64,000 nt of DNA from Candidatus Daviesbacteria bacterium (GTDB taxonomy: Bacteria; Patescibacteriota; Microgenomatia; Daviesbacterales; UBA10151). A model generated the notes under the pieces. That model made no database searches and was not told where the DNA came from. It saw nothing but the letters and a program-made list of their open reading frames with translations. Of the stretch, positions 3,067-48,091 are shown piece by piece (position 1 is the stretch's first letter; every line of letters begins with the position of its first letter). The stretch covers positions 1,962 to 65,961 of the forward strand of contig JACPKP010000007.1 in assembly GCA_016186955.1 (NCBI GenBank), written 5' to 3'. Made by a program: the position numbers and the translations under genes.

Positions 3067-3568
3067 AAACATCGCTGTTTCAGGGGCTATTGCAACGGGC
3101 AAATCTACACTTGCTAGGAACCTGGCTCAAACCTTAGGCTGGCAGTGGCTCAGCGCTGGGGAGTACTTCAGGAAATGGCATGGTAAGCATAAAATTCCCC
3201 TCCATCATTCTGGGAAAGTGCCGCAGGAGTTAGACAAAAAATTCGATAAACATTTCCAAAACTTAATGAAAAATAAAGAGCATGTGGTATTCGAATCACA
3301 TCTGGCTGGTTTTTTTGCCAAAGATTATCCGCAAACCTTCAAAGTCCTTTGCTGCTCTGAATTGAAAACCAGGATTAAAAGGGCAGCAAAAGAAGCTGCA
3401 AAAAGCATAAAGATGAGGGCAGAGTCACACAGAAGGAAGTTTAAAAAGTTGTACGGGGTGGAAAACAGGCTGGATGAGAGCTATTTTAATCTTGTAGTGG
3501 ACACAACGGCTAAAACCCCGGAAGAAGTTTTACAGTTTGTGTTAAAATCAATCTATAGAAAATCCTGA
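3059..3568 (+). CDS. cmk: cytidylate kinase (short archaeal-type CMP kinase family)
   Basis: Walker A GAIATGKST followed by SAGEYFR; ~170 aa, typical of cytidylate-kinase-like family 2. Confidence 0.55.
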   Translation: MFKNIAVSGAIATGKSTLARNLAQTLGWQWLSAGEYFRKWHGKHKIPLHHSGKVPQELDKKFDKHFQNLMKNKEHVVFESHLAGFFAKDYPQTFKVLCCSELKTRIKRAAKEAAKSIKMRAESHRRKFKKLYGVENRLDESYFNLVVDTTAKTPEEVLQFVLKSIYRKS

Positions 3569-5480: not shown

Positions 5481-6902
<1,422 letters not shown>

Positions 6903-6968
6903 TCACACCTCCGAGGTGTGATATTTCTACAACAGTTGATTGACAAAGGGTTTGTTTGGTGTTAATAG
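6903..6968 (+). promoter_or_regulatory. 19-bp perfect palindrome TCACACCTCCGAGGTGTGA followed by candidate sigma70 promoter (TTGACA-17-TAATAG)
   Basis: Palindrome at 6903-6921, TTGACA at 6940-6945. The same palindrome and a TTGACA recur at 29979-30038. Confidence 0.4.
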
Positions 6969-7408: not shown

Positions 7409-8590
7409 ATGAAAGAGGTTTATATTGTCAGCGCTGCCAGGACTCCGATTGGTAAATTTTTGGGTTCCCTCTCCCCTTTTGGCGCCCCTGAACTTGGAGG
7501 TTTTGCAATCAGGGCAGCAGTTGGGTGGTCAGGTTTGAGGTCGGAAAATATAGAAGAGGTGATCATGGGGCAGGCGCTTCAGGCAGGAGTTGGCCAGGCG
7601 CCCGCCAGGCAGGCAATGCTTAAAGCCGGTTTACCCGAATCAGCGTCTGCCACCACAATAAACAAAGTTTGCGCTTCAGGTCTTGAAGCAATCCACATTG
7701 GCGCTTTAAAAATCCAAACCGGTGAAGCAAATTGTCTAGTTGCAGGCGGGATGGAAAGTATGAGTAGGGCTCCCCACATCCTGAAAAATTCCAGGAATTT
7801 AAAAATGGGTGATGTAAATTTGGTTGATAGTGCAATAAGTGATGGGTTATGGTGTGCTTTTGAAAACACCCATATGGGGAATTTGGCGGAATTTATTGCG
7901 AGAGAGCGGGGAATCAACCGGATGGAAATGGATAAATTTGCGCTACTTAGCCACCTCAAAGCAGTCAGCGCAATAAATAAGGGTAAATTTTTACAGGAAA
8001 TTATACCAGTACCTCAATTTGGAGGGAAAGGGTTTGTGGGCCGGGATGAAAATCCCCGGGCAGACACCAGTATGGAGAAACTTATGAAATTGGATCCGGT
8101 ATTTGAGAAGGGCAGCGGAATTGTCACTGCAGGCAATGCCCCGGGGTTGGCAGACGGGGCGGCAGCGCTGGTTTTGGCTGAAAAATCCTGGCTTGAAAAA
8201 AGTGGTATTCCTCCCCTGGCAAAAATTACCGGTTATGCTACAGCTGCAACAGAGCCAAAATGGCTTTTTGCAGCGCCTGAGGTTGCCATCAAAAAATTGC
8301 TGGCCAGGACAAAAACCCAGCTTTCAGATTATCACCTTTTAGAAGTAAATGAGGCTTTTGCTGCGCAGATTTTGGCAAACGGGCAGGCGCTCAATTGGGA
8401 TTGGGACAGGGTTAATGTCAACGGCGGGGCAATCGCTTTGGGCCATCCGGTTGGCGCCACAGGGGCCAGAATTGTTGTGACACTCGTCCATGCTTTAAAA
8501 GCCCGTGGTTTAAAAAGCGGTCTTGCCGCGCTTTGCCATGGCGGAGGCGGGGCTGTGGCAATGAGTTTTGAGCTATCCCGCTATTGTTAA
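7409..8590 (+). CDS. acetyl-CoA C-acetyltransferase (thiolase)
   Basis: VSAARTPIGKF N-terminus; catalytic Cys (NKVCASG); C-terminal GHPVGATGAR and CHGGG motifs. Confidence 0.85.
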   Translation: MKEVYIVSAARTPIGKFLGSLSPFGAPELGGFAIRAAVGWSGLRSENIEEVIMGQALQAGVGQAPARQAMLKAGLPESASATTINKVCASGLEAIHIGALKIQTGEANCLVAGGMESMSRAPHILKNSRNLKMGDVNLVDSAISDGLWCAFENTHMGNLAEFIARERGINRMEMDKFALLSHLKAVSAINKGKFLQEIIPVPQFGGKGFVGRDENPRADTSMEKLMKLDPVFEKGSGIVTAGNAPGLADGAAALVLAEKSWLEKSGIPPLAKITGYATAATEPKWLFAAPEVAIKKLLARTKTQLSDYHLLEVNEAFAAQILANGQALNWDWDRVNVNGGAIALGHPVGATGARIVVTLVHALKARGLKSGLAALCHGGGGAVAMSFELSRYC

Positions 8591-14066: not shown

Positions 14067-14150
14067 TACATTAATTCAATCATTTCTAAATAAGTAGGCG
14101 TACCAGAGGTGTATGCTTATTTTTTTGTGTTGCATAGGTATTATTTTTTT

Positions 14151-17100
14151 ATGCAAGCCGCAAAAGCCAGCAATATTAATAATAGGCTGTATTGGGGGAA
14201 AAGAAGCTCTATAGCGGAGCTTAAAAAACTTGATCTTACCAGGCTCCAAAAACAATCCTACGAACTTTTTTTAAACTCCGGCATCGGACAGCTTTTAAAT
14301 GAAATATCACCTGTTGCAGATTTCACCGGAAAAAACTGGAGACTTGAATTCGGCGAATACTTTTTCGGTAAAAGCAGGTTTTCACCTGAGCAGTGCATGA
14401 TTAAAGGGGTTTCTTTTGATGCCCCGCTCCGGGTTAAAGTGGTCCTGACCAACCTCCAGACAAATGAAACATACAAACAGGAGGCTTTTTTGGGTGATAT
14501 CCCCCAGATGACGGAAAAAGGCACCTTTATTATTAATGGTGTTGAAAGGGTGATAGTCAACCAGATTGTCCGTTCCCCAGGGGTTTTTTTCTCAGCCATA
14601 GAAGATCCTATCACAGGCAGGAAGCTGTTTGGCGCTGAGCTGCGCCCTTCCCATGGTTCCTGGCTGGAATTTTCAATCTCCCGCTCTGATGTGTTAACAG
14701 TCAAAATCGACCGGAGAAGAAAATTTGCAGCAACCACTCTGCTTAGGGCGCTTGGGTTTACTGACGGCCAGATCAGGGATAGGTTTTCATCAGCAGACCA
14801 AAACAGCGACCACCGCTACATTGAATCAACCCTGGCCAAAGACATGACTAAAGACGAGAATGAAGCTCTGCTGGAAATCTTCCGCAAGATGAGGCCCGGC
14901 GACCCGGTAGTTTTAGAAACTGCACGGACACTTTTGGAAAATATGTTTTTTAATGCCCGCCGGTATAACCTGACCAGGGTGGGCAGGTTTAAAATCAATA
15001 AAAGGTTAGGTTTAAATATCCCCAATACACCGGAAAACTGGACCCTGACTAAAGAAGATATAGTTGAAACCCTAATATACTTGATCGGGTTAGCAAACGG
15101 TGCGGGGAAAGTTGACGATATTGACCATTTATCCAACAGGAGGGTGAGGATGGTTGGGGAGCTGGTGGCCCAGAATGCTTTTTGGGTCGGCCTGCAAAGG
15201 TTGGAGAGGGTAATCAGGGAAAGGATGAGCCTGCTTTCGGCTGACCAGGAGATTACTGCTTCGGGTCTGGTCAACGCCAGGCCGGTTATTGCCGCCATTA
15301 ATGAATTTTTCCGCTCTTCGCAATTGTCTCAGATACTTGACCAGATCAACCCTTTATCGGAAGTGGACCATTTAAGAAGGCTTTCCGTAACAGGCACAGG
15401 GGGTATCTCCAGGGATAGGGCCAGTTTTTCCATCCGTGATATTAACCATTCCCAATACGGCAGGATTGACCCTGTCCGTTCCCCTGAAGGGCAAAATATC
15501 GGGCTGGTTACTTATCTTGCGCTCTATGCCAGGATTAATGAGTATGGTTTTTTAGAGACACCATACAGGAAGGTGGTTTTACAGGGGAACAAGCCGAAAA
15601 TCACTGATGAAATAGTTTATTTAACAGCAGACGATGAGGAGAACTTGTATATTACCGAAGCAACTATTGAAATCAGCAATGACGGATATATTACCCAAAA
15701 AAGAGTGCCTGTGCGTTTCGGCGGTAACTTTTTTGAAACAGACAACAAAATGGTTAATTTAATTGATGTATCTCCGCAGCAGATAGTCGGGACTTCGGCA
15801 TCGCTGATCCCCTTTTTGGCCCATGATGATGCCAACAGGGCCTTGATGGGTACCCATATGCAGTGCCAGGCAGTGCCCCTGCTTTTACCGCAATCCCCCA
15901 TGGTTGGGACAGGTATGGAGGAGATTATAGCCGATAATATGGCCAGGGTTGTCAGGGCAGGTTTTGATGGGACGATAACTTATGTTGATGGGGAAAAACT
16001 GGTGCTTGAGGGAAAAGGTAAAAAAGAGGAGCTTAAAATTGAGAAGTTTGTCAATTCCCCGGCTATGACCTGTTACTCCCAACGCCCGGCTGTTTTTTTG
16101 GGCCAAAAGGTCAAAACAGGTGACCTGCTTATTGAGGGTGTATCAACTCAGGGAGGAGAGTTGGCTTTGGGACAAAATTTAATGATAGCATATATGAGCT
16201 ATGACGGTTTAGAATACGAAGACGCGATCATCATCTCTGATCGGCTTGTCAAAGAAGACCTTTTAACCAGTATCCATATTGAAGAATATTCCACAGATGT
16301 GGTTGAGACGAAACTCGGGCCGGATGAGGTCACAAGCGATATACCAAATGTTTCGGAAGATAACCTGGCCAACCTTGATGCCGGAGGTGTTGTCAGGATT
16401 GGCGCAGAGGTGGGCCCGGGGGATATATTAGTCGGTAAAGTCCAGCCTAAAGGTGAAACTGAGCTGACTGCAGAGGAGAGGTTGCTGCGGGCAATATTCG
16501 GGGAAAAAGCCAAAGAAGTCAGGGATACATCTTTGAGGATGCCCCATGGTGAAAAAGGCATTGTTATCGGGATACAGATCTTATCCAGGGAGGCAGGGGA
16601 TGATTTGGGGGCAGGGGTGCTGCAGAGGATTAAAGTTAAAGTTGCCCAGTATAGGAAAGTTTCCGCAGGTGACAAATTAGCAGGCAGGCATGGCAATAAA
16701 GGGGTTATTTCTAAAGTAGTGCCTGAGTATGATATGCCGCGTCTTGAAGACGGCACCCCGGTTGATATTATTATCCGCCCGGCAGCTATTTTAAACAGGA
16801 TGAATTTGGGGCAGCTTTTGGAAGCGCATTTTGGTTTTGCTGCCAAAAAACTGGGTTATAAAATCGCTGCGCCGGTATTTGAAAAAATTCCCGAGGAGAT
16901 ACTCACAGAAGAGCTCAAAAAAGCAAAACTTCCTGTTTCAGGCAAAAGCCGCCTGATTGACGGAAGAACAGGGGATTACTTCTACCAAGACGTGACTGTG
17001 GGGTATGCATATTTCCTGAAATTGATACATATGGTTGAGGATAAAACCCACGCACGCTCTACCGGTCCTTATTCCCTGGTTACACAACAGCCTTTAGGCG

Positions 17101-17540
17101 GGAAAGCGCAAATGGGAGGCCAAAGGTTGGGGGAGATGGAGGTTTGGGCGCTTGAAGCATACGGCGCTGCAAATATATTACAGGAAATGTTGACTATCAA
17201 ATCTGATGATGTAGTCGGAAGGGCCAAAGCATTTGAGGCGATAGTCAAAGGGACAGAGATCCCGCAGGCTTTGATACCGGAGTCATTTAAGGTTTTGGGC
17301 AAAGAATTGCAGAGCCTGGCTGTATCGGTAGAGCCTCAGGGTGTGCAGATTGTCAGCGCTCCAGCTGTTGTGGGTTTGGATGATTCAGCTGCCGCAAGTG
17401 ATGATACCAAGCTAAAGGAAAAGAAAGAGTTGGAAGAGTTCAAAGAGGCGCTTGAAGTCACTGATGTTGGGGATGTTGCTGAATTGGAGAGTGAATCAAG
17501 CCCGATGGAGATTGTTGATGTTCCCAAAACATATGAATGA
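14151..17540 (+). CDS. rpoB: DNA-directed RNA polymerase subunit beta
   Basis: Full-length RpoB hallmarks ([25 protein letters not shown] etc.). The likely start is the ATG at 14151 rather than the ORF-track 14109. Confidence 0.95.
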
Positions 17541-20500
17541 CCTACTTGATTTTGAAAGCTTAAAAGTATCAATTGCCAGCCCTGAGGTAATCAGGGGGTG
17601 GTCTTTTGGTGAAGTTACAAAACCTGAGACTATCAATTACCGTACCTTAAAGGCTGAGAAAGATGGGCTTTTCTCGGAAAATATTTTTGGGCCTACCAAA
17701 GATTTTGAATGTTATTGCGGTAAGTACAAGAGGATCCGTTACAGGGGTGTAATCTGTGATAAGTGCGGGGTTGAGGTAACGCAGTCAAAGGTTAGGCGGG
17801 AGAGGATGGGTCATATCTCCCTTGCTACCCCTGTTGCACACATATGGTTTGTCAAAGGTGCTCCTTCCAAAATCTCACTGGTTTTGGACCTGACAATGAA
17901 AAACCTGGAGTCAGTGATATATTTTGCATCATATATGGTGGTGGAAATTGACAGTGAAGGGAAACAGCAAGCTTTAGAACATTTGGCTAGTCAACTCGCG
18001 GACAAGAAAGCGCTGACAGTCCAAAACCTGGACAGGGCTATTGGTGAGGTAGAGAAAAATCTTGAGCAAATCCTGAAGGAATTAAAAAAGAAACTGAAAG
18101 AGCATGAAAAATTTGAATTGGCTGCTTCTGAAGAAGAATTAAAGACCCGCCAGTTTGTTGCAAGCCTAAGGGATGGCAACCAAGTTGAGTTGGGCCAGTT
18201 GGAAGGTATATACAAGGTTGTTACTGATTTGACAAACAGCATTGTACCTCTCAGGCTTCTTTCTGAAGATGAGTATTATAAACTGCAGGAGTATGGCGTA
18301 GCTGATTTTCTCAAAGTGGGTATGGGCGCAGAGGTCCTTTTGGAGGTTTTACAAAGAATTGACCTTGATAAACTGGCTGCTGAATTGAGGATAGAAGTCC
18401 AAAAATCTTCAGGGCAACGCCATATTAAAGCTACAAAAAGGCTGCGTTTAGTTGAAGGGATGCGCAAATCTAAAATCAGCCCTGCATGGATGGTGTTGAC
18501 AGTTTTGCCTGTATTACCGCCTGACCTGCGGCCTATGGTGCAGCTCCCGGGGGGCAGGTTTGCAACAAGTGATTTAAATGACCTGTACAGACGGGTTATC
18601 AACAGGAATAACAGGTTAAAAAGGTTGATTGAGCTGGGCGCTCCCGAAATTATTTTAAGGAATGAAAAACGGATGCTGCAGGAGGCCGTTGATTCTTTGA
18701 TTGACACCAATACCAGGACAACCAGGAGGATTGGAGGCCACCAGTTGCGTTCCCTCTCTGATATGTTGCGCGGTAAACAAGGCAGGTTCAGGCAAAACTT
18801 ATTGGGTAAAAGGGTTGATTACTCCGGCAGGTCAGTTATTATTGTCGGGCCTAAACTTAAACTTCATCAGGTGGGTGTGCCAAAAGAGATGGCGCTTGAG
18901 GTGTTTAAACCGTTTGTTTTAAGGGAGTTGATCTCGCGCGGTCTGGCATCAAATGTGAAAGGTGCAAAAAATATCCTGGAATTTAGGCCGCCGGAAGTTT
19001 GGGATATCCTGGAAGAAGTTATTGAAAACCACCCGGTGCTCATTAACAGGGCCCCTACACTTCACAGGCTTGGGATACAGGCATTTTACCCGGTATTGAC
19101 AGACGGTGATGCAATCCAGATCCACCCGTGTATTTGTGCAGGGTTTAATGCAGATTTTGACGGGGATCAGATGGCCATACATGTGCCGTTATCTGAAAAA
19201 GCCAAAGCTGAAGCCAGGGAGCTGATGATGGCTAAAGAAAATATCTTAAAACCGGGTGACAGCTCGCCTGTCAATATGCCGAACAAAGAGATGGCGCTTG
19301 GTTGTTTCTACATAACTTCGATAGATAAAAAACTGGAGCCATCCGAAAAAATTTACTCCGAGCAGGAAGCGTTGCTGGCCTACCAGACCAATAAATTGCA
19401 GGCAAGAAGGCTGATAAAATGTTATATCCAGGACAAATTGTTAGAGACTACTGTCGGCAGGATTTTATTTAACAAATTTTTGCCCAAAGAGCTGCAATTT
19501 CTTAATGAAAACATATCGCAAGCCTGGATTGTCAAAATTATTATGAAAGCTTTCAAAACTTTTGAGAAATCTGAAATCGCCAAACTGATTGATGACATTA
19601 AAGATTTTGGTTTTTGGGGGGTAACTATTTCAGGACTATCGCTGGCTATTTCAGATAATAAAATTATCCCTGAAAAACCTAAGCTGATCGCTCAGGGGGA
19701 TCAAGAGATTGCGGAGATTGAAAATAACCTGGCAAAAGGACTCATTACAAATGAAGAAAGACGGGCCTTAGCCCAAGAGGTTTGGACTAGGATTGGTGAG
19801 GAGATAGTCAGGGGGACATTTGCCTCGATAGATGCTGATAGCCCGATCCAGATTATTATGCAGTCAGGGGGAGCCAGGGCTACTACTGCCCAAATTGCCC
19901 AGACCTCAGGCATGAGAGGGTTTTCGGTTGACCCAACCGGAAAGATTGTAGAGCTTCCTACGAAATCCAATTACAGGGAAGGGTTAGGTGTATTTGAATA
20001 CTTTACTTCCTGCAGGGGCGCCAGAAAAGGTGTTGCAGATAGGGCTATCAGGACTGCAGATGCAGGGTATTTGACCAGAAGACTGGTTGATGTTTCCCAC
20101 GATGTAATTATCAGGATCGAAGAATGCGGTACAGACCAGGGGATAAGTCTTGAAGTTTCAAAAGAGAATATCCCATCAAACAATTCAAGATTTTTAGGCA
20201 GGAAGACTCTAAACAAGGTAGTCGATCCCAAAACAAAGAAAACAATTATTGGAAGTGATTCCTACATTGAAGAGAATGAGGTTGTTGAGCTTTTTAAAAG
20301 CAATGTGGCAGAGGTGACTATCCGTTCTCCCCTGACATGCAAGGCTAAAATTGGACTTTGTTCAAACTGTTACGGGTTAGATCTATCAAGCAGGAAGCCG
20401 GTCCAGTTGGGGACTCCGGTTGGTGTAGTTGCAGCCCAAGCTATAGGTGAACCGGGCACCCAGTTGACGATGCGGACTTTTCATACCGGTGGAGTTGTCG

Positions 20501-21213
20501 GAGTGGATATAACCCAAGGATTGCCAAGGATAGAAGAGTTATTTGAAGCGAGAAGCCCCAAAGTTGCAAGCCCGGTTTCCGAGATCGCCGGAAAGATAAC
20601 TCTGGTTGATTCAGACCAGGGCAGGATTGTACGGGTGAGAACCACATCCAAGCCTCATGAAGAACGCGAATATAATATTCCCCCTTCAGCAGAGTTATTG
20701 GTTGAAGATGGTAATTTGGTAGCAGCCGGCAGCCCGCTGGCATCAGGGCATCTGGAAATTAATGAGGTTTTAAGAGTGAGGGGTTTGAGGGAGGCGCAAA
20801 GGTATATAGTGGGCCAGGCAAGGGAGGTGTATGAGTCGCAAGGGGTGCACATCCATGAGAAACACTTTGAGGTGATTGTACGCAAGATGTCTGACAAAGT
20901 TAGGATTGAATCCCAGGGTGATGCTGTGCTTTTGCCTGGAGAGATTGTAGATAGGAACAGGTTTGAGGATGAAAATACCAGGGTGCTGGCTGAAGGCGGG
21001 GAACCTGCTACAGCAGGGGTTATAATCTTGGGGATTACCAGGTCCTCGCTTCAGACAGAGAGTTTTCTTTCTGCAGCCTCATTTCAGGAAACCACTACTG
21101 TTTTGGCAGATGCTGCATCATCCGGTAAGGTGGACAAGTTGCTTGGGCTCAAAGAAAATGTTATCATTGGACGATTAATACCAACTAGCCCCGAACGGGC
21201 GAAGATGGAGTAA
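17533..21213 (+). CDS. rpoC: DNA-directed RNA polymerase subunit beta'
   Basis: Zn-finger [35 protein letters not shown] catalytic motif, trigger loop. The ATG at 17533 overlaps the rpoB stop (ATGAATGA). Confidence 0.95.
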
Positions 21214-23643: not shown

Positions 23644-23652
23644 ACCGCGTTA

Positions 23653-23719
23653 GGCACAAAAGGCGTCCCCTTTTGAGGCTAAATTAATTTATACCCCCTT
23701 GTTTTAACTGTAACTATTT
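23653..23719. repeat. Y-repeat copy 1: 67-nt exact duplicate of the 3' end of the regulator gene (24481..25785)
   Basis: Identical to 24457-24523. Its reverse complement encodes EIVTVKTRGYKLI*. Confidence 0.7.
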
Positions 23720-23723
23720 TTAA

Positions 23724-23749
23724 AATCCCACCCCCTGGGTGGTCCTGAG
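23724..23749. repeat. X-repeat copy 1 (variant, CCCACC-CCCT-GGGTGG hairpin)
   Basis: AAAATCCCACCCCCTGGGTGGTCCTGAG. Confidence 0.5.
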
Positions 23750-24449
23750 TATAGGTTTCCTTTCATCGAAAAGTTGCGGGCACAACAATTATAAGATATC
23801 ATTCTTGTTTATGGAGAGAATCAGTGTGCAGGAAGCAGGGTTAGAAGGTTTACCCAGGATTAGGGGACATCATCTAAATAAACTGAAAGAGCTCTATGTT
23901 TTTATGAATACTAAAAGGGAATCTTTATCCGAATCAGGATATCAAGGTTCTTTGTCAGGAGAAATGGAAGCTTTAATCAAATTTTTTATTCAGGAACATA
24001 GCAGCGATTTGTTGACATTTGTAGATCCTGCAACCCGTACTTTTGGTTTATCTCAAGAGTGGATGATGAGTTATATAAACGATACAATTGGAGGTATTGA
24101 AGCCGAGAAAGTTAAAATATACAATCAAAAAACATATGAAGCGATTGTAAAATATATTTCATATCCGGCAAGCCAACAAGTTCTATTGACAGTTACCCCG
24201 GATTTTATTTGCAGATTATGTTTAGTGGGAACACATTGTTTAAAAAGCTCAAAATTGATGCCACTTGATTATAGAGAAATCAGAGAATTTTCAAAGTTCC
24301 AAATAAACAGGAGAAGGGATATGCAAATTTATACGGAGGAATTTAAATTTAGCGATCGCCTGAAGCCATTAATCACTAAAGTAGTGTTAACCACCTTTGG
24401 AGATATTAGGTTTTACTTATCTTTTGGTGGAATCCCACCCCCGGGTTAG
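23739..24449 (+). CDS. hypothetical protein on a repeat-flanked cassette
   Basis: ORF bracketed by X/Y repeats. The true start may be MERISVQ at 23811. No recognisable domain. Confidence 0.4.
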   Translation: MVLSIGFLSSKSCGHNNYKISFLFMERISVQEAGLEGLPRIRGHHLNKLKELYVFMNTKRESLSESGYQGSLSGEMEALIKFFIQEHSSDLLTFVDPATRTFGLSQEWMMSYINDTIGGIEAEKVKIYNQKTYEAIVKYISYPASQQVLLTVTPDFICRLCLVGTHCLKSSKLMPLDYREIREFSKFQINRRRDMQIYTEEFKFSDRLKPLITKVVLTTFGDIRFYLSFGGIPPPG

Positions 24450-24523
24450 TCCTAGGCACAAAAGGCGTCCCCTTTTGAGGCTAAATTAATTTATACCCCC
24501 TTGTTTTAACTGTAACTATTTCA
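24431..24523. repeat. X-repeat copy 2 plus Y-repeat copy 2 (native 3' end of the regulator gene)
   Basis: AATCCCACCCCCGGGTTAGTCCTAGG followed by the 67-nt Y sequence. Confidence 0.7.
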
Positions 24524-25898: not shown

Positions 25899-26177
25899 GT
25901 GACAGAAAAAGAATGGACGGATTACGGTTATGGTATCTCTCCGCTTTATGCTGCAGAAAACCCGGTGACTTATTTGCCTATTGCCCAGTTTTCTGCTCCT
26001 CTTGAATGTCCGCAGGGAATAATTGTAAAAGAAGCCCAACCGGAACAAAAAATTCAACCCAGACAAATTATTGTCGCACAGCCAAAAGTAGAGTACAGCA
26101 GCTATAAACGGCTACCCTTTTGGCGCAATTTAATAATAATTCTGCAAAAATGGGCGCCCCGTATAGGTTCCATTTGA
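25899..26177 (+). CDS. hypothetical protein
   Basis: ORF only; Gln/Pro-rich. Confidence 0.25.
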   Translation: MTEKEWTDYGYGISPLYAAENPVTYLPIAQFSAPLECPQGIIVKEAQPEQKIQPRQIIVAQPKVEYSSYKRLPFWRNLIIILQKWAPRIGSI

Positions 26178-26237
26178 CTTTTAAGTTCCAAGAGGTTAAT
26201 ATGTTATTCTGTCAAACGAAAAACCACGGAAGTTAAT

Positions 26238-26368
26238 CGTGGATGAAGTTTGCTTCGCCGACAGGCGAATCTCGCCGAAGGCGAGCAGGAAGAGAAACTA
26301 CGGGCGAAGCGAAGCGGAGTCCGTAGAGGCTCATTCTAAAGCACCCCTCTTCAGGGGGCTATTTTTTG
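26238..26368 (+). ncRNA. structured leader/possible small RNA: nested GC stems ending in an intrinsic-terminator-like hairpin plus T6
   Basis: GCTTCGCC...GGCGAAGC long-range pairing, CTCGCC-GAA-GGCGAG and CTACGG...CCGTAG stems, then CCCCTCTTCAGGGGG followed by TTTTTT (26343-26368). Confidence 0.3.
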
Positions 26369-26379
26369 AAATCACACCT

Positions 26380-26628
26380 ATGGATCAGTTAAAAAAACAA
26401 AAGCTTGAAATGTGGCAAAAAAAACTTGAAGGGCTTCAAAAAGAGTTCAAGGAGATTATGGTGCGCAAAGGGGAAGCTGCAGCTGACGGTGACCTTTCAG
26501 AAAATGCAGCATACAAACAGGCTGTGGAGGAGGCTGATATTTGCCTGGTCAGGATCAGTGAAATTAAAAAAATTATAGCTAATTTGGAAGGACCCGCCTC
26601 CGCCAAGGCTCCGGCGGGCAAGGGATAA
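26380..26628 (+). CDS. stand-alone GreA/GreB N-terminal coiled-coil domain protein
   Basis: GDLSENAAYKQA signature of the Gre-factor N-terminal domain, with two Asp/Glu near the coiled-coil tip. No FKBP-like C-domain; 82 aa. Confidence 0.55.
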   Translation: MDQLKKQKLEMWQKKLEGLQKEFKEIMVRKGEAAADGDLSENAAYKQAVEEADICLVRISEIKKIIANLEGPASAKAPAGKG

Positions 26629-26632
26629 TAGA

Positions 26633-28801
26633 ATGGCTGTTACAAAGACTAAGAGAGATTACCCCCTTGATAGGATACGTAACATAGGCATCATTGCCCA
26701 TATTGATGCCGGGAAGACCACCACAACAGAGCGGATCTTATTTTATACCGGTAAAACTTATAAAATAGGTAATATTGATGAAGGCACTACCACAACTGAT
26801 TGGATGGAACAGGAAAAGGAACGTGGTATTACAATAGTTTCTGCTGCTATAACCGCTTCCTGGACTGCCAAGTCAGGACCTTTTCAAGACCAGGAGATGA
26901 GGATTAATTTAATTGATACCCCCGGGCATGTGGATTTTACAGTGGAGGTAGAGCGGTCCTTGCGGGTTTTGGACGGAGGGGTGATTGTTTTGGATGCAGC
27001 CTCTGGTGTGCAGTCCCAGACCGAGACTGTCTGGAGGCAGGCCAATAAATACCATGTTCCTCTGATTGCATTTGCCAACAAGATGGATGTGGTTGGGGCT
27101 GATTTTTTGGGCACAATCCAGTCAGCCAGAGATAGATTAGGGGCAAACGCTATCGCCTATAACCTGCCGATTGGTGCGGAAACCAGTTTTAAAGGGGTTG
27201 TGGATTTGTTGGGTAATGATGAGAAGGGTGCTTTCGCGATTGTTTGGGAGCAAAGTGGTTCTGATTTTGATCCCAGTGGTTCAAAATTTAACATAACAGA
27301 TATTCCAGAAGATATGAAAATTGCAGTTGAGGAGCACAGAAATAAATTGATTGAAGAGATTTGTGCTACGGATGAAGTTTTATTGGAACAGTTTCTTAAT
27401 GGTAAGAAGATTGCTGTTAATGATTTGAAGTTAGCTTTGAGAAAAGCAGTAATTGCTGAAAAAATTGTCCCGGTTATGGCAGGTTCTTCACTTCGCAATA
27501 AAGGGGTGCAACCAATGCTTGATAATGTGGTTAATTTTTTGCCTTCCCCCCAGGATTTGCCTGAGATTAAAGGGCTTGACCCTAAAACCCAAGAGGAAAA
27601 GATTTTTCAGAATGTAAAAGATGCCCCTTTGGGCGCTTTGGCTTTTAAAATCCAGGTTGACCCTCATGTTGGGAGGCTCACTTATGTTAGGGTTTATTCT
27701 GGGATTTTAAAATCAGGTTCATATCTTTACAACTCAACAAAAGATGTAAAAGAGCGGGTAGGGAGGGTGCTTTTAATGCACGCCAATGATAGGGAGGAGA
27801 TTGATGAAGCTTTTGCAGGGGAAATTATAGCAGTAGTGGGGTTGAAAGATACTGTGACTGGAGATACGCTTTGTGATGATTCAAACCCGATTGTTTTGGA
27901 ATCCATTACTTTTGCAGAACCTGTGATCTCTCTTGCTATTGAACCCAAAACTAAATCAGACCAGGAAAAACTGGCTTATTCTTTGCAAAGACTGGGGGAA
28001 GAAGACCCAACATTTCGGGTAAAATCTAACCCTGAGACAGGACAGACTATTATCTCCGGTATGGGAGAGCTCCATCTGGAGATTATTGTGGACAGGATGA
28101 AAAGGGAGTTTAAGGTGGAGGCGAATATTGGAGAGCCTCAGGTTGCATACCGGGAAACTATCCAAAAAGAAGCAAGGGGTGAGGGTAAGTACATCAGGCA
28201 GACTGGTGGCAGAGGCCAATACGGACATTGCTTGCTTAGGATTGAACCTCTTCCCAGGGGCCAGGGACGGGAATTTGTCTCAGAAGTTGTGGGTGGGGCA
28301 ATACCAAGGGAGTTTATTCCGGCTATCGAAAAAGGGGTTATTGAAAAAGAAGACACCGGAATGTTGGCCGGTTTTCCGGTAACGGATATCAAAGTTGCGG
28401 TTTATGACGGGTCATATCATGATGTTGATTCATCTGAGATTGCATTTAAAATTGCCGGATCCTTAGGGCTTTCCGAGGCTGCCAAAGAGGCGGATATGAT
28501 ACTTTTGGAGCCTATTATGAAGGTGGAAGTGACAACGCCTGAGGAATTTATGGGAGATCTGATTGGGGATTTATCTTCAAAACGGGCACAGATCCTGGGT
28601 ACTGAGAAAAGGCATAATTCAAGCGTGATTAATGCTTTGGTGCCTCTTGCAGAACTTGGAGGTTATATAACTGCCATAAGGTCAATGTCACAAGGTCGTG
28701 CTTCAGCCTACATTGAGCCCTCCCATTATGAGAGTGTGCCAAGTAACATTACCCAAAAAATTGTTGCATCTTCAGGGTTCACTGGCAGAGTTGAGCATTA
28801 A
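26633..28801 (+). CDS. fusA: elongation factor G
   Basis: AHIDAGKTTTTERIL, DTPGHVDF, NKMD; full length. Confidence 0.95.
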   Translation: MAVTKTKRDYPLDRIRNIGIIAHIDAGKTTTTERILFYTGKTYKIGNIDEGTTTTDWMEQEKERGITIVSAAITASWTAKSGPFQDQEMRINLIDTPGHVDFTVEVERSLRVLDGGVIVLDAASGVQSQTETVWRQANKYHVPLIAFANKMDVVGADFLGTIQSARDRLGANAIAYNLPIGAETSFKGVVDLLGNDEKGAFAIVWEQSGSDFDPSGSKFNITDIPEDMKIAVEEHRNKLIEEICATDEVLLEQFLNGKKIAVNDLKLALRKAVIAEKIVPVMAGSSLRNKGVQPMLDNVVNFLPSPQDLPEIKGLDPKTQEEKIFQNVKDAPLGALAFKIQVDPHVGRLTYVRVYSGILKSGSYLYNSTKDVKERVGRVLLMHANDREEIDEAFAGEIIAVVGLKDTVTGDTLCDDSNPIVLESITFAEPVISLAIEPKTKSDQEKLAYSLQRLGEEDPTFRVKSNPETGQTIISGMGELHLEIIVDRMKREFKVEANIGEPQVAYRETIQKEARGEGKYIRQTGGRGQYGHCLLRIEPLPRGQGREFVSEVVGGAIPREFIPAIEKGVIEKEDTGMLAGFPVTDIKVAVYDGSYHDVDSSEIAFKIAGSLGLSEAAKEADMILLEPIMKVEVTTPEEFMGDLIGDLSSKRAQILGTEKRHNSSVINALVPLAELGGYITAIRSMSQGRASAYIEPSHYESVPSNITQKIVASSGFTGRVEH

Positions 28802-28900: not shown

Positions 28901-29455
28901 ATGAAACAAGCCCGCTGCGTGATTATTATTGATGGGAGTAACTTCTACTTCAAGTTAAAAGATTTGGATTTACATTATGAACTGCAATTTGATTTCTCTG
29001 GTTTTGCTAAATTGCTGGCTGGTAAGAATAAAATTGCGAGGTGTGTGTACTATGTGGGTGCGGTAAGAACAGATGGTACAAAACATACCCAAAAGTTGTT
29101 TAATAAGCAGCAGAAACTTTTTGCAAATCTCAAGAAACATAATTTTCAATATTCGCTTGGATATTTGTTGAAATCTGGCGGAAAAATGCATGAAAAAGGA
29201 GTAGATGTTAATATGGCTGTTGATATAGTTAAAGGTGCGCTAAAAGATGAGTTTGAACATTTTATTATAGTCAGCTCGGACACGGATTTGTTACCAGCTA
29301 TATTAGTAGTCAAAGAAGCGGGCAAAACTATTGAATATATAGGATTTTCTCATCAAGCAAGTTTGGCGATGGTAGCTAATTGTTCCGAATCCAGGTTATT
29401 GAAAAAAGAGGATTTACTACCTTTTGTAAGTCGCAAAATATCACCCAAAAAATAG
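28901..29455 (+). CDS. NYN-domain (LabA/PIN-like) nuclease-fold protein
   Basis: IIIDGSNF and FIIVSSDTDL motifs typical of the NYN/DUF88 PIN-like fold. Confidence 0.65.
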   Translation: MKQARCVIIIDGSNFYFKLKDLDLHYELQFDFSGFAKLLAGKNKIARCVYYVGAVRTDGTKHTQKLFNKQQKLFANLKKHNFQYSLGYLLKSGGKMHEKGVDVNMAVDIVKGALKDEFEHFIIVSSDTDLLPAILVVKEAGKTIEYIGFSHQASLAMVANCSESRLLKKEDLLPFVSRKISPKK

Positions 29456-29494
29456 TGGCATCCTCCGGGTTTACAGGCAGAGTAGAGCATTAAT
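29444..29494 (+). repeat. 51-nt synonymous-codon duplicate of the fusA 3' terminus (encodes TQKIVASSGFTGRVEH*)
   Basis: 9 of 51 nt differ from 28751-28801, all at synonymous third positions; out of frame with the NYN gene. Confidence 0.8.
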
Positions 29495-29877: not shown

Positions 29878-29978
29878 ATAAACTAATTATAATATTAAAT
29901 TACACTTTTTACAAAGATTGTTTAAGAAAACGTTTTTCTTAAACATTACCCCTCTGATGTGGCAGGACAATTTTAATA

Positions 29979-30038
29979 TCACACCTCCGAGGTGTGATAA
30001 AAATAGCTGTTGACAAATTGGATACAAGCTCATAGAAT
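29979..30038 (+). promoter_or_regulatory. 19-bp palindrome TCACACCTCCGAGGTGTGA followed by sigma70 promoter TTGACA-17-TAGAAT
   Basis: Second copy of the palindrome. The -10 lies only ~8 nt before the ATG at 30046, suggesting a near-leaderless transcript. Confidence 0.45.
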
Positions 30039-35526: not shown

Positions 35527-36324
35527 ATGATCCAGACATTACTGGGCACTAAAAAATTTATGACTTCAACTTATGATTCCCGCGGCAGGCGGGTGGGTGC
35601 AACAGTGGTTGAAATGAACCCGAATATGGTCACGCAAATTAAAGATAAGGAAGGGAAAGACGGATACGATGCTGTGCAATTGGGTTATGGAACTAAAAAG
35701 AGCGTAAAAAAACCCCAGATTGGTCATGCAAAAAAAGCCGGAGTTGAGGGTAAGATCAGGTGGATGCGTGAAGTTAGGGCTAGCGAGACTGTAAAACCTG
35801 GCGACCAGATCAGTTTGGGCCAGGTTTTTTCTGTTGGTGATGCAGTTAAAATAACAGGGGTAAGCAAGGGTAAAGGGTTTCAGGGTGGAGTCAGAAGGCA
35901 TGGATTCCATGGAGGGCCAAAAACCCATGGCCAATCAGACCGCCACCGGGCGCCAGGTTCCATCGGGGCCGGTACAACTCCGGGCCGGGTTTACAAGGGT
36001 AAAAGAATGGCAGGGCATATGGGAGTGGAGAGGGTGAGTTATAAAGGTTTGGAGGTTGTCAAAGTGGATAAACAAAACAACCTGTTGACTATCAAAGGCG
36101 GTGTGCCTGGTCCGGCAGGAGGATTTGTAATAGTTGAAAAACAAGGACGGATAAAAGGTTATACGCCACCACCTGAGGAAAAACCTGAAGAGGAAGAATT
36201 AGAGTCAAGTGACAACACCTCGGAGGTGAAGTCAGAAGAGCCAAAAGTTGAAGCAACAGAAGAGGTTGAATCTACTGAAAGTTCCGATGAGGTAAAGGAG
36301 GAAACAGGAAATGGCAGTAATTAA
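35527..36324 (+). CDS. rplC: 50S ribosomal protein L3 with acidic C-terminal tail
   Basis: L3 core (GVSKGKGFQGGVRRHGF); about 50 aa of Glu/Ser-rich extension. Confidence 0.9.
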   Translation: MIQTLLGTKKFMTSTYDSRGRRVGATVVEMNPNMVTQIKDKEGKDGYDAVQLGYGTKKSVKKPQIGHAKKAGVEGKIRWMREVRASETVKPGDQISLGQVFSVGDAVKITGVSKGKGFQGGVRRHGFHGGPKTHGQSDRHRAPGSIGAGTTPGRVYKGKRMAGHMGVERVSYKGLEVVKVDKQNNLLTIKGGVPGPAGGFVIVEKQGRIKGYTPPPEEKPEEEELESSDNTSEVKSEEPKVEATEEVESTESSDEVKEETGNGSN

Positions 36325-37180
36325 GTCAAAAGTCAAAAGCCCGTCTGCCGGACGGGCAGGTCAAAAGTCAAAAGTATCAAGAAAAGATTCTGTCGCCCCG
36401 AGTAACTCGGGGATCCAGAATGACAAAAAACCAAAAAAGACTAAAAAAGTTGCAGGAGTAAATAAGATTGCCACGTCCTCCGAAAAGGTTAAAAAACCTA
36501 TAGTTAAAACTAAGACAACATCAAATTTGTCAATTCCTGTTTATTCTCTGGCAGGCAGCAAGACCGCAGCAAGTTTGGCATTGCCTAAAGAAATTTTTGG
36601 CGCCAAAGTAAACAAAGCCTTGCTTGCCCAGGCGATGAGGGTTTACCTTAATAATCAGAAAAGCCATTGGTCAAATACCAAAACCCGTGGTGAAGTAAAA
36701 GGGTCAACCAGGAAAATTTTTAAACAAAAAGGCACCGGCAGGGCAAGACATGGGGCAATCAGGGCCCCAATTTTTGTGGGCGGGGGGATTGCTTTGGGGC
36801 CAAAAAACCGGAAGGTAGTTTTGGATCTGCCCGCAAAAATGAAAAATGCGGCGCTGGTTTCAGCCTTAGCACAAAAAGCAGATGAGAAGCAGGTTTTAGG
36901 GATCAGCGGCTTGGATAAAGCAAGCGGAAAAACCAAAGAGATGATAGGCTTAGTCACAAGAGTCCAGAGTCAAGAGTCCAGTAAAAAAAGTATTTTGATT
37001 GTGGTGGGGGAGAAGATAGAAAATGCTGCTAGGGCTGTGAGAAATATTACAGGGGTAGATTTACTGCAATTTGACCAGATTAATGCTTATGAAGTAATTA
37101 AACACCAAAGCCTGGTTTTAACAAAGGAAGCTGTTGAAAAATTGCAGGGAAGACTATTGGGTAAAAAGGAGGCTAAATAA
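36311..37180 (+). CDS. rplD: 50S ribosomal protein L4 with ~80-aa Lys-rich N-terminal extension
   Basis: L4 core from about IPVYSLAG. The N-terminal extension contains the palindromic element (36324-36374) in-frame. Confidence 0.9.
   Translation: MAVIKSKVKSPSAGRAGQKSKVSRKDSVAPSNSGIQNDKKPKKTKKVAGVNKIATSSEKVKKPIVKTKTTSNLSIPVYSLAGSKTAASLALPKEIFGAKVNKALLAQAMRVYLNNQKSHWSNTKTRGEVKGSTRKIFKQKGTGRARHGAIRAPIFVGGGIALGPKNRKVVLDLPAKMKNAALVSALAQKADEKQVLGISGLDKASGKTKEMIGLVTRVQSQESSKKSILIVVGEKIENAARAVRNITGVDLLQFDQINAYEVIKHQSLVLTKEAVEKLQGRLLGKKEAK
36324..36374. repeat. GTCAAAA(x2)-GCCCGTCTGCCGGACGGGCAGG-GTCAAAA(x2) palindromic element, in-frame in rplD
   Basis: Encodes KSKVKSPSAGRAGQKSKV; family members at 37599, 38199, 47643, 44466 and 49419. 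Confidence 0.75.
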
Positions 37181-37182
37181 AA

Positions 37183-37692
37183 ATGACAGCTGTTATATTA
37201 AAACCGTTGGTTACGGAAAAATCAATGTCGCTTGTCAAATCAGGAATGTTTACATTCCTGGTGGATAAAAACGCCACCAAAAGTCAGATTGGGAAAGCTG
37301 TTTCCGGGAGATTTGCAGTGGATGTTTTAAGTGTCAGTACAGTGAATATGAAGGGTAAAACCAAACTGCAAAAGAGCAGAAAAGGGTATTTTCAGAAACC
37401 ATCGTTTAAAAAAGCAATAGTCCAGCTTAAAAAAGGGCAAAAAATTGCTTTGTTTGAATCAGCAGAGAAAGAAGAAGTAGAAGTGAGGACAGCAGAAGGT
37501 GAAGTAGTTGGCAAAACCACAGAAAAAAAGAGTTTATTGGGGAGGACAAAGATAAAGATCAGCAAGCTGTCTCCTGTGGAGATTGAACAAAATACAGCAG
37601 TCAAAAGCCCGCCTGCCGGACGGGCAGGTCAAAAGGCAAAAGTTAAAAGTACAAGTAAAAAATTAAAAGTAAACAAGAAAGGAGCTAAGTAA
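37183..37692 (+). CDS. rplW: 50S ribosomal protein L23 with C-terminal extension
   Basis: L23 core; the C-terminal 70 aa are Lys-rich and contain the palindromic element. Confidence 0.85.
   Translation: MTAVILKPLVTEKSMSLVKSGMFTFLVDKNATKSQIGKAVSGRFAVDVLSVSTVNMKGKTKLQKSRKGYFQKPSFKKAIVQLKKGQKIALFESAEKEEVEVRTAEGEVVGKTTEKKSLLGRTKIKISKLSPVEIEQNTAVKSPPAGRAGQKAKVKSTSKKLKVNKKGAK
37599..37645. repeat. palindromic element copy in the rplW 3' extension (GCCCGCCTGCCGGACGGGCAGG flanked by GTCAAAAG)
   Basis: Encodes VKSPPAGRAGQKAKVKS. Confidence 0.7.
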
Positions 37693-42040: not shown

Positions 42041-42589
42041 ATGAAGACTTTAAAAGAAAAATATTTGGAGGAGGTGCAACCGAAAATGATGGAAGAGTTC
42101 AGTATTAAAAATGTTTTTGCAGCGCCTAAATTAAAAAAGATAGTTATCAATATGGGTCTGGCTGACGCAAAAGAGGATGCCGGTATTTTAGAAAAATCAG
42201 TGGTTAATGTTGCAGCTATTTCAGGCCAGAAGCCGGTTGTGACAAAGGCTAAAAAATCCATCGCAGCTTTTAAACTTACGAAAGGCGCTTCAATAGGGTT
42301 GATGGTAACTTTAAGGGGTGATAAGATGTATGCTTTTTTCAATAAACTTGTAAATATAGTATTGCCAAAAGTGAGGGATTTTAGGGGAGTTGCACAAACC
42401 GGCTTTGACAGCAAGGGAAATTATAATTTAGGTTTTAAGGAACTACTCATATTCCCTGAAATAAACTATAAAAATGTTGATAAACCAAGGGGGTTGCAGG
42501 TTACTATTAATACAACAGCAGAAAACAGGGAGCAGGGGAAAATGTTGCTAGAGCTGATGGGGATGCCTTTTAAGAAAGGGGACAGATAA
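42041..42589 (+). CDS. rplE: 50S ribosomal protein L5
   Basis: Typical L5. Confidence 0.9.
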   Translation: MKTLKEKYLEEVQPKMMEEFSIKNVFAAPKLKKIVINMGLADAKEDAGILEKSVVNVAAISGQKPVVTKAKKSIAAFKLTKGASIGLMVTLRGDKMYAFFNKLVNIVLPKVRDFRGVAQTGFDSKGNYNLGFKELLIFPEINYKNVDKPRGLQVTINTTAENREQGKMLLELMGMPFKKGDR

Positions 42590-42690
42590 AATTTTCAATT
42601 TAAAATTTACAATTTTCAATCAAATCTTAATTTTAAATTAAAACATTGGAAATTCATTGAAAATTAAAAACTGAAAATTAAAAATTAATT
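42588..42690. repeat. AT-rich intergenic repeat R copy 1 (AAATTTTCAATTTAAAATTTACAATTTTCAAT...AAAATTAAAAATTAATTT-ATG)
   Basis: Paralogs at 42887, 44381 and 49333. Confidence 0.7.
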
Positions 42691-42870
42691 TATGGCTAAG
42701 GTTAGTAATATAGTCAAGAAAAAAGTTAAATATGAAGTCCAAAAAGTGAACCGCTGTTTACGGTGTGGCAGGTCACGTGGTTTTATCAGACGCTTTGGTG
42801 TATGCAGAATTTGTTTTAGGGAACTTGTTTACCGCGGTTATTTACCGGGAGTAAAAAAATCATCATGGTA
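42691..42870 (+). CDS. rpsZ: 30S ribosomal protein S14 type Z (zinc-binding, 59 aa)
   Basis: [59 protein letters not shown] with a CxxC...CxxC motif. Below the 60-aa ORF-track cutoff; called by eye. Confidence 0.8.
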
Positions 42871-42886
42871 ATAGAAAGGAAAAAAG

Positions 42887-43004
42887 AGAAATTTTCAATT
42901 TAAAATTTACAATTTTCAATCAATGATTTAATGTTTAAATTTTGAAAATTAATCAAATGAAAATTCATTAAAAATTGAAAAATAAAAATTAAAAATTAAT
43001 TATT
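42887..43004. repeat. AT-rich intergenic repeat R copy 2
   Basis: Same head (GAAATTTTCAATTTAAAATTTACAATTTTCAATCAATGATTTAAT) and tail (AAAATTAAAAATTAATTATT-ATG) as copy 1. Confidence 0.7.
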
Positions 43005-44380: not shown

Positions 44381-44507
44381 CAAATTTTCAAGTCACAATT
44401 TACAATTTTCAATAAATGATTTAATTTTAAATTTTAAACATTGAAAATTCATTGTAAATTGAAAACCTGTCTGCCGACAGGCAAGACTAAAAATTAAAAA
44501 TTAATTT
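44381..44507. repeat. AT-rich intergenic repeat R copy 3, carrying embedded GC hairpin CCTGTCTGCCGACAGG (44466-44481)
   Basis: Head CAAATTTTCAAGTCACAATTTACAATTTTCAAT, tail AAAATTAAAAATTAATTT-ATG (rpsE). Confidence 0.7.
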
Positions 44508-47313: not shown

Positions 47314-48091
47314 GGGAGAACTGGCGCTAATGAGAAAGAGTGGGGTTATTACTGCCAGGGCGTTGGGAGAAGTCTTGAAGAATGTCCGTGAAGGTATTAG
47401 CCTGATAGAATTGGAAAAAGTTGCGGAAAACCAGGTTGTCAAGTTGGGAGGAGAACCTTCATTTAAAACCGTCCCTGGTTACAGATGGACTTCCTGCTTG
47501 ACTATCAACAATGAGGTTGTACACGGAATCCCAAGGGATATTAAGTTGAAAAATGGTGATATCTTAAGTGTTGATTTAGGCGCAGTTTTTAAAGGCTGGC
47601 ATACGGATGCTGCATGGAGTGTGGTGGTGGGAAGTCAAAAGTCAAAAGCCCGTTTGCCGAACGGGCAGGTCAAAAGTCAAAATGATGAAAAAGAGAAATT
47701 TTTAGCAGTGGGGGAAGAGGCTCTATGGAAGGGGATTGGGCAGGCAGTGGATGGTAATAGAATAGGTGATATCTCCGGGGTTATACAGGAAGTTGTGGAG
47801 AGCGCAGGTTATTCAGTTGTGCGGGCGCTGGTAGGGCATGGGGTGGGCAGGGAGCTGCATGAAGACCCCGAAGTGCCGGGATATGGTAAAAAAAGTACAG
47901 GGCTCAAACTTATTGCAGGCATGACGCTTGCGGTAGAGGTGATTTACACCAGCGGGAAACCTGATGTAGTTTTGGATCCTGATGGTTGGACTATCACTAC
48001 TGCAGATGGAAGCCTGGGTGGACTTTTTGAGATGAGTGTGGTGGTAGGTGTAAAACAAGCTGAAGCGCTGACGGATTGGAGACAAAAGTGA
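47291..48091 (+). CDS. map: methionine aminopeptidase type I with ~25-aa internal insertion
   Basis: Pita-bread fold motifs. The true start may be the internal Met at 47324. The insertion is encoded by the palindromic element (47643-47690). Confidence 0.85.
   Translation: MAINTRTKGELALMRKSGVITARALGEVLKNVREGISLIELEKVAENQVVKLGGEPSFKTVPGYRWTSCLTINNEVVHGIPRDIKLKNGDILSVDLGAVFKGWHTDAAWSVVVGSQKSKARLPNGQVKSQNDEKEKFLAVGEEALWKGIGQAVDGNRIGDISGVIQEVVESAGYSVVRALVGHGVGRELHEDPEVPGYGKKSTGLKLIAGMTLAVEVIYTSGKPDVVLDPDGWTITTADGSLGGLFEMSVVVGVKQAEALTDWRQK
47643..47690. repeat. palindromic element copy in-frame in map (GTCAAAAGTCAAAAG-CCCGTTTGCCGAACGGGCAGG-TCAAAAGTCAAAA)
   Basis: Stem bases differ from the rplD copy in a compensatory manner (GCCCGTT/AACGGGC versus GCCCGTC/GACGGGC). 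Confidence 0.75.

Follow-up and report, generated by a model that had tools for sequence, protein, structure and literature searches.

The secondary-channel factors of bacterial RNA polymerase (RNAP) described so far all bind the enzyme via a C-terminal globular domain (PMC4598747), and GreA/B, Gfh1, DksA and Rnk each combine a coiled coil with such an anchor. A precedent for a shortened factor that is active on RNAP is TraR, a truncated DksA homologue of conjugative plasmids (PMC4598747). In Escherichia coli, an intrinsic terminator (GraL) in the greA leader stops two thirds of the transcripts, and GreA autoregulation depends on this leader (PMC2836576, PMC6829880). The greA/rnk family has been listed as the 7th among the attenuator-controlled gene families, and attenuators before rpsL and fusA are known as well (PMC2965389). 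Here, we describe a gene, greN, that encodes a stand-alone Gre N-terminal coiled coil directly in front of fusA, the gene for elongation factor G (EF-G), together with its promoter and leader. It was found in a stretch of 64,000 nucleotides (nt), hereafter the window, from contig JACPKP010000007.1 of a Candidatus Daviesbacteria genome (candidate phyla radiation (CPR)/Patescibacteria), and was compared with related loci, which are cited by L numbers where they need to be told apart.

greN lies at 26380..26628 on the forward (+) strand, with its ATG at 26380 and its stop codon at 26626-26628, and its product of 82 amino acids (aa) includes GDLSENAAYKQAVEEAD. An earlier note, made from the letters of this DNA, had read the gene as a stand-alone Gre N-terminal domain that keeps the acidic tip and lacks the C-terminal domain, and this reading was borne out. 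Pfam GreA_GreB_N (PF03449) matched residues 6-69 (E 9.5e-12), no Pfam match to the C-terminal GreA_GreB domain (PF01272) was obtained in the 82-aa protein, and 75 of 80 related loci carry the same short gene next to fusA. For the NCBIfam greA model TIGR01462, the score was 43.2 bits compared to a cut-off of 139; only the N-terminal half of the greA models was matched, and every NCBIfam Gre equivalog model left GreN far under its cut-off. The AlphaFold2 (AF2) model was a helical hairpin (H3-34/H43-70; predicted local distance difference test, pLDDT, 86.8) whose closest fold in the PDB was E. coli GreA (1grj; root-mean-square deviation 1.1 Å over 61 columns). In a profile alignment to solved structures, GDLSENAAY of GreN fell on GDLKENAEY of GreA (residues 40-48), with D38 and E41 of GreN corresponding to the E. 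coli GreA tip acids D41 and E44. GreN is a Gre-factor N-terminal antiparallel coiled coil in which the acidic catalytic-tip motif is complete and the docking domain is absent. It shares with GreA and GreB (PF03449 plus PF01272) the homologous coiled coil and the tip GDL(S/K)ENAxY, but differs from them in having no C-terminal RNAP-binding domain, in carrying at the base of the hairpin a tryptophan, W12, that is absent from the full-length GreAs checked, and in the position of its gene in the str operon, joined to the fusA start. Because GreN departs from the two-domain architecture and scores under the curated cut-offs, we set it apart as a variant of the Gre kind without a C-terminal domain (CTD-less) and did not class it as GreA. 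Proteins of this type are presently annotated as 'hypothetical protein' or generic 'GreA/GreB family factor', and in the literature we found no paper that treats GreA together with Daviesbacteria or Microgenomates.

The open reading frame (ORF) track gave a longer, 129-aa protein that starts from a GTG at 26239 and covers the leader. The earlier note had doubted that this protein is real, correctly so: we rejected it as an over-extension because the homologues all begin at the internal Met, the NCBI record for the source contig (HYW46_04125) has the 82-aa form, and the extension lies within an insertion missing from close relatives. Gene callers in this window can wrongly lengthen greN into an inserted repeat. 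A further concern, that the short ORF could be a pseudogene left over from a full-length greA or the product of an assembly or frameshift error in one, has nothing in its favour except the short length, and its probability is negligible. The earlier note had raised a frameshift or assembly error that conceals a fusion to a downstream domain; since fusA starts 4 nt past the greN stop, no frameshift-hidden C-terminal domain is possible. Coding potential for a C-terminal domain is also absent from every frame of the window and the loci, and the same short form, under purifying selection, is present in 133 species genomes. We, therefore, excluded the artefact explanation. Two candidates for atypical forms, a GreN-EF-G fusion in L070 and a 170-aa GreN in L008, were rejected after normal stops were found in both.

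The family was sized with a word-indexed homologue search, a scan of one genome per species, and an exhaustive HMMER search over 1.84 billion representatives. The word-indexed search gave 20 homologues, 68-84 aa throughout, with PF03449 as the sole domain. The scan found greN relatives in 133 genomes, and those with informative titles were nearly all Daviesbacteria, Microgenomates or Patescibacteria metagenome-assembled genomes (MAGs). Across the word-indexed and HMMER searches the homologues measured 48-126 aa, and a gap separated the HMMER scores of the short family (55-118 bits) from those of full-length GreA, which appeared only from 51 bits down (E about 1e-8). Conservation and the ratio of nonsynonymous to synonymous substitution rates (dN/dS) were studied in 77 fusA-linked orthologues. 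The ORF was unbroken in all of them (63-86 aa, mode 74 aa), W12, G37, D38, L39, E41, N42 and A43 were 100% conserved, and the median dN/dS was 0.27, indicating that greN is conserved and under purifying selection. The N-terminal Trp was found in both CTD-less types, GreN and a second type termed GreN-2. The 60 best representatives checked included 22 full-length GreAs, all of which lacked it. Located at the base, or open end, of the hairpin, this invariant, family-specific residue is a candidate determinant of docking.

Downstream, greN is tightly linked to fusA (26633..28801, + strand), whose product has the complete Pfam EF-G domain set. Among the 80 loci fetched for synteny, greN is immediately 5' of fusA in 75; in most of these the distance from the greN stop to the fusA start is -1 to +14 nt, with frequent overlaps of the form ATGA or TAATG, and the fusA Shine-Dalgarno (SD) sequence, GGAGG, lies within the last greN codons. 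The operon order is rpoC-rpsL-rpsG-[0 to 2 kb variable genes]-greN-fusA-[variable]-tuf, and greN, which abuts or overlaps the fusA start, has a fixed place in the str operon. In the window, the beta and beta' subunits of RNAP are encoded at 14109-17540 and 17452-21213. The variable part in the window is large and holds a 285-aa ORF, a 236-aa ORF, a minus-strand gene for a 434-aa AAA/Trans_reg_C protein, and a 92-aa ORF.

In the five loci of the 80 where the gene is not directly before fusA, it is an additional short paralog, in some cases one of a tandem pair. One copy of such pairs has the tip GDLSENAAYK and its partner a degenerate tip, KVGYLSENAYK, in which the first acidic residue is lost; another degenerate paralog tip reads NGEDEDSAL. 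Extra short GreA-N paralogs away from fusA were located in L062 (1797-2373), L071 (1835-2394), L077 (3001-3480), L007 and L012, and near those of L007, L012 and L062 lies a large opposite-strand ORF with motifs that, judged by eye, are DEAD-box-helicase-like. GreN-2 forms a separate group of 33 proteins with the tip GDWHENAEFEDAERQ (GDWHENAEF), an N-terminal Trp and an LP(K/R)A motif. It follows GreN in tandem, between rpsG and fusA, in 3 independent long contigs (L085 3835-4246, L086 3619-4231, and L088 3793-4249), overlapping the GreN end by about 20 nt, and the same GreN/GreN-2 arrangement was seen at L018 2762-2971 and L063 3236-3451. The tie between CTD-less Gre fingers and fusA is therefore old, and the family has diversified.

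From the sequence and its setting, we infer that GreN is most likely a minimal secondary-channel factor of RNAP, expressed together with EF-G. As the N-terminal domain of Gre factors does, the coiled coil would reach into the secondary channel, where the two acidic tip residues could assist cleavage of backtracked RNA. The lost docking domain might be offset by the conserved hairpin base (M11, the invariant W12, I65 and L69), by EF-G-linked expression, or by both, and a strong promoter shared with EF-G could make up for weak GreN affinity. Koulich et al. (1997-98) reportedly found that the isolated GreA N-terminal domain keeps a weak cleavage-inducing activity, the C-terminal domain giving affinity. 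On that result, the finger alone would be competent yet weakly bound. TraR offers a contrast: it belongs to the DksA family, keeps the binding module and has lost half of the coiled coil, whereas GreN keeps the whole coiled coil and has lost the binding module.

Members of the Gre fold are not all cleavage factors, and GreN could in principle be a non-catalytic occupant of, or competitor for, the secondary channel, a modulator like Gfh1 or Rnk. The non-cleaving Gfh1, Rnk and Rv3788 have the Gre-fold coiled coil in common with GreN, Gfh1 inhibits catalysis despite its retained acidic tip (PMC4598747), some GreN paralogs are tip-degenerate like the inactive members, and the two degenerate tips given above suggest diversified channel binders. 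A competitor needs affinity, however, and the known ones are full-length proteins that bind through the C-terminal domain (PMC4598747), while GreN is a coiled coil only. Moreover, the fusA-linked copy has the whole catalytic motif, with G-D-L-x-E-N-A 100% conserved in the 77 sequences. We, therefore, regard a non-catalytic GreN as unlikely.

The synteny alone suggested a translation-linked role, in which GreN would have been recruited to bind EF-G or the ribosome and the strict linkage to fusA, with its translational coupling, would reflect a physical partnership. That greN abuts fusA so consistently, often with overlapping stop and start codons, and that GreN-2 occupies the same slot, would fit such a role. 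Set against this, conservation falls on precisely the residues with which GreA serves the RNAP active site, rpoB-rpoC stands two genes upstream in the same cluster, some paralogs lie away from fusA, and there is no known precedent. A partnership with the translation machinery thus seems improbable to us, and the secondary-channel factor remains the preferred reading of GreN.

greN-fusA is preceded by a sigma70-type promoter, TTGACT-17 nt-TAATAT (26174..26202, + strand), identified by a promoter scan and by conservation and recognised by covariance model R1. For the promoter and leader, 82 loci were compared, and TTGACT-16/18-TAnnnT was found 5' of greN in 74 of them, the invariant positions being exactly the hexamers. 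The spacer is often TTTAGGATCAAA, and each locus has about one copy of the 16-mer TTGACTTTTAGGATCA, invariably at the greN promoter. As described in the earlier note, a terminator-like hairpin with a run of six T ends 12 nt before the greN ATG. This ancestral leader hairpin (AGC.CCCCU / AGGGGGCU) with its U6 tract spans 26340..26367 (+ strand; folding and covariation), its core CCCCT-CTTC-AGGGG(G) lying at 26344-26358 and the T6 at 26362-26367. An equivalent hairpin and T-run is present in 72 of the 78 fusA-linked loci used for this count. Its onset is about 10 nt past the -10 box and its end usually 9-35 nt before the ATG, and about 66-72 loci have the promoter-then-hairpin layout before greN. 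A near-consensus sigma70 promoter followed by a hairpin and U-tract is kept in almost all relatives; in the promoter- and hairpin-free loci (e.g., L051, L060 and L061), rpsG is directly upstream.

The pairing of the hairpin is kept while its sequence changes. The form seen most often reads (G)CCUCCC-loop-GGGAGG(U)UUUUU, the window clade has the arms GCUCCCC/GGGGGC, and other variants are CCCCGC/GCGGGG and UCCCAA/UUGGGA. Covariation was evaluated with a hand-annotated seed and a covariance model, with 500 shuffles and with controls in which the partner was slid by 1-3 columns. In this alignment, which favours structure by construction (the slid controls carry the same bias), 97% of the cells were paired, compared to 83% in shuffles and 64-89% in the slid controls. 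Changes on both sides were found at all 7 pairs, with 58 doubly changed cells compared to 15.2 in shuffles (0/500). G.U pairs were frequent, indicating RNA on the + strand. When the raw MAFFT alignment of promoter and hairpin was given to RNAalifold, no structure emerged because the variable loop length misregistered the arms, which was cured by the seed and covariance model. The structured leader proposed in the earlier note was likewise confirmed by folding: the 156-nt leader reached -56.8 kcal/mol (z = -3.4; 0/200 shuffles equally stable), with z = -1.9 for the opposite strand. The comparison of the leader with Rfam suggested there matched no family. Only tRNA was found in the whole window at gathering thresholds, just a chance microRNA match in 26100-26700 at E up to 10, and no match in ten related loci at E up to 1. 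Weak additional matches to the promoter-plus-hairpin model were seen in the greN/fusA gap of L064 (969-1032) and L067 (3260-3322) and just before tuf in L053 (5638-5700); the unit may have been duplicated inside the operon.

Of the control modes raised in the earlier note (attenuator, riboswitch-like element, or small RNA (sRNA)), the attenuator is in keeping with these data, with a hairpin that follows a conserved promoter and parallels the greA leaders (PMC2836576, PMC2965389). Like the E. coli greA leader, the greN leader has a strong promoter and then an intrinsic terminator within tens of nt before a gre gene. The GraL stem is 11 bp (PMC2836576), whereas that of greN is 5-9 bp and termination here is predicted. 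The greN leader also has no sequence similarity to GraL, with arms of the CCUCCC/GGGAGG type that include the SD in many loci, and it stands upstream of fusA too. Compared with the known rpsL and fusA leaders of the str operon, it stands ahead of greN, itself an insertion in front of fusA, and it has no Rfam match. By analogy, the greN leader would be a new member of the gre/str-operon leader terminator class, with termination predicted. On the model of the known greA leaders, we propose that greN-fusA is attenuated by this hairpin close to its promoter. The 3' arm GGGAGG lies at SD distance from the greN ATG in roughly one third of the loci, where the hairpin would also sequester the greN SD.

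The hairpin and U-tract could instead be a mere terminator of the upstream genes (rpsG, the 92-aa ORF or inserts), a 5' stabilising stem-loop, or both. Some co-oriented or variable gene is always found upstream, only a few nt separate the start of the hairpin from where the transcript is expected to begin, and no alternative antiterminator was predicted in the window. However, in about 66-70 loci the promoter precedes the hairpin and the two move as one unit whatever the upstream gene. The C-rich/G-rich hairpin type is also nearly unique to this position: of 49 CCYCC..GGRGG+T hairpins in 447 kb, 45 sit at the greN leader, and none was found elsewhere in the window. Since generic terminators would not be so site-specific, the hairpin is probably more than that. 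A terminating or stabilising role is a possibility that we take seriously but place behind attenuation.

Between promoter and hairpin, the window carries a GC-rich structured element of ~133 nt with three or four stem-loops (26204..26341, + strand). The earlier note had considered a riboswitch-like control as one option for this region of ~130 nt, and that option was not supported. The nearest relatives L081, L082 and L001 are without the ~130 nt, their promoter and hairpin being otherwise collinear, and a search with the window leader against the 82 loci and the window by blastn and nhmmer found only the leader itself and the T-run region. Of the leader as a whole, the hairpin and U-tract covary, while the GC-rich stems have no orthologous conservation. 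A second copy of ~133 nt, about 92% identical, was found on the minus strand of a metagenome contig (L084 4345-4480), where its flanks are unrelated and a small ORF on either side points towards it. An initial pattern had found no copy in the metagenomes, another gave this one, and two scans of viral contigs found none; a match to the pattern in L083, inside a peptidase-like coding region, was discarded as chance. Because the closest relatives and all other loci lack the stems, and because a 92%-identical copy stands in an unrelated context, they are most simply explained as a small repeat element that was inserted in this lineage only. It would have landed in a permissive spot and now form the 5' portion of the leader transcript. 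We rejected the idea that the element is coding, since the two copies differ by compensating 1-nt indels and the window copy has an in-frame stop where the L084 frame is open. By eye, its ends showed no clear terminal inverted repeats (TIRs); ATTCT borders the window copy on both sides and in L084 falls partly inside the element. Like ERIC, REP, BIME and MITE-like repeats, the insert is GC-rich, multi-hairpin and non-coding, lies in two unrelated intergenic contexts and would be transcribed with its neighbours. It differs from them in having only two known copies, no recognised TIR or target-site duplication, and no similarity to a named family.

The stability of the fold (-48.9 kcal/mol, z -4.5), the position downstream of a promoter and the 92% conservation with a distant copy also brought up the question of whether the ~133-nt element is a functional RNA (a riboswitch, an sRNA or a protein-binding leader) that controls greN-fusA in this lineage. 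This, too, seems improbable to us. The closest relatives have the same gene order without the element, the L084 copy (fold z -2.0) is not 5' of a gene, and no Rfam family was matched in the window, the leader region or the ten related loci. In addition, the ten differences between the two copies, read in the alignment against the folds, were mostly non-compensatory. We thus keep the inserted repeat as the explanation for the GC-rich stems.

Taken as a whole, an explanation that joins a GreN channel factor co-expressed with EF-G, a promoter-proximal attenuator and an inserted repeat is the best we can offer, and we hold it to be rather probable. Several points weigh against it. GreN is without the C-terminal globular domain used by all described factors (PMC4598747). 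Although its acidic tip is intact, Gfh1 has no RNA cleavage activity (PMC4598747), and tip conservation is, therefore, no proof of cleavage activity in GreN. The Daviesbacteria may also encode a full-length GreA: tblastn with C-terminal domains detected none in the window or in the related loci, about 0.5 Mb that cover a small part of each genome, and a search from the full-length representative P0055 gave Parcubacteria-type GreAs only. It is also odd to find a terminator right after a strong promoter and before the gene for the essential, abundant EF-G. Where the hairpin hides the greN SD, the GreN level could be far below that of EF-G, and the idea that abundance compensates for affinity is, therefore, weakened. 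Finally, only two copies of the insert are known.

With described channel factors all built as a coiled coil plus an anchor, a lineage-wide finger-only family raises the question of how the channel is found, and GreN is a natural minimal system in which catalysis can be separated from docking. The position in the str operon, the overlap with the EF-G start and the promoter-proximal hairpin of its own suggest a co-regulation of transcript rescue and translation elongation in extremely reduced genomes. A more far-reaching and speculative idea, to which we give limited credence, is that Daviesbacteria have swapped the two-domain Gre for one to four CTD-less coiled-coil proteins (GreN, GreN-2 and paralogs with degenerate tips) that dock on RNAP by a new Trp-centred surface, the main copy being hard-wired to EF-G synthesis. 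If this were true, the shared promoter, the attenuator and translational coupling would set transcript-rescue capacity in proportion to translation elongation, and GreN would be the smallest known secondary-channel factor and part of a new transcription-translation bookkeeping.

Other features near greN were recorded. The 92-aa ORF, o92 (25899..26177, + strand), has a stop codon that overlaps the -35 box of the greN promoter. The two nearest relatives have counterparts with 30-36% aa identity (L081 1747-2034 and L082 705-962; tblastn E 2e-14 and 8e-10), and o92 is therefore probably a genuine small gene. It had no Pfam or NCBIfam match and was not found in the other 80 loci. Its partner in the window is the divergent gene for the 434-aa AAA/Trans_reg_C regulator, a protein also present in L020 and L032. 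The 236-aa ORF (23739-24449), with a weak DUF1284 match, is surrounded by perfect 69-nt direct repeats (23651-23719 and 24453-24521), and this repeat-flanked ORF between rpsG and greN looks like a recent cassette insertion or duplication.

At the greN/fusA junction, a GC-rich stretch just 5' of the fusA start (26593..26618, + strand) codes for the C-terminal tail GPASAKAPAGKG of GreN and is near-identical at the DNA level in L002. The tail DNA (window 26593-26622, L002 about 3215-3250) is almost identical between the two loci, whereas the proteins are otherwise only about 54% identical. The tail folds ordinarily (z +1.0), and it is either a conserved element of the junction or an independently acquired GC-rich segment. 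A reverse-complement relation between the tail hairpin and 8522-8551 was dropped as a repeat, the 77% similarity being taken as chance; 8522-8551 was read as coding for a Gly-rich stretch close to where a 393-aa ORF has its 3' end. Beyond fusA, its final 57 nt (28745-28801) recur with 84% identity at 29437-29493 as the 3' end of an NYN-domain ORF (28901-29455). It looks as if an NYN gene was inserted at the fusA end, duplicating that end, and NYN homologues also follow fusA in L011 and L046. Many Daviesbacteria-like loci, with the same operon and an EF-G 74-83% identical to that of the window, come from third-party annotation (TPA) MAG records titled 'uncultured Gammaproteobacteria bacterium', which looks like a labelling error.

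Repeats were also seen elsewhere in the window. AT-rich spacers between ribosomal-protein genes are repeated (42589-43001, 44382-44503 and 49334-49456; also 36323-36387, 37591-37655 and 47632-47696) and contain the short GC palindromes CCTGTCTGCCGACAGGCAAG and CCCGTCTGCCGGACGGGCAGG in 2-4 copies each. A 24-nt palindrome, ATCACACCTCCGAGGTGTGATATT, is present in two copies (6902-6925 and 29975-29998), its arms being CACCTCC, which is anti-SD-like, and GGAGGTG, which is SD-like.

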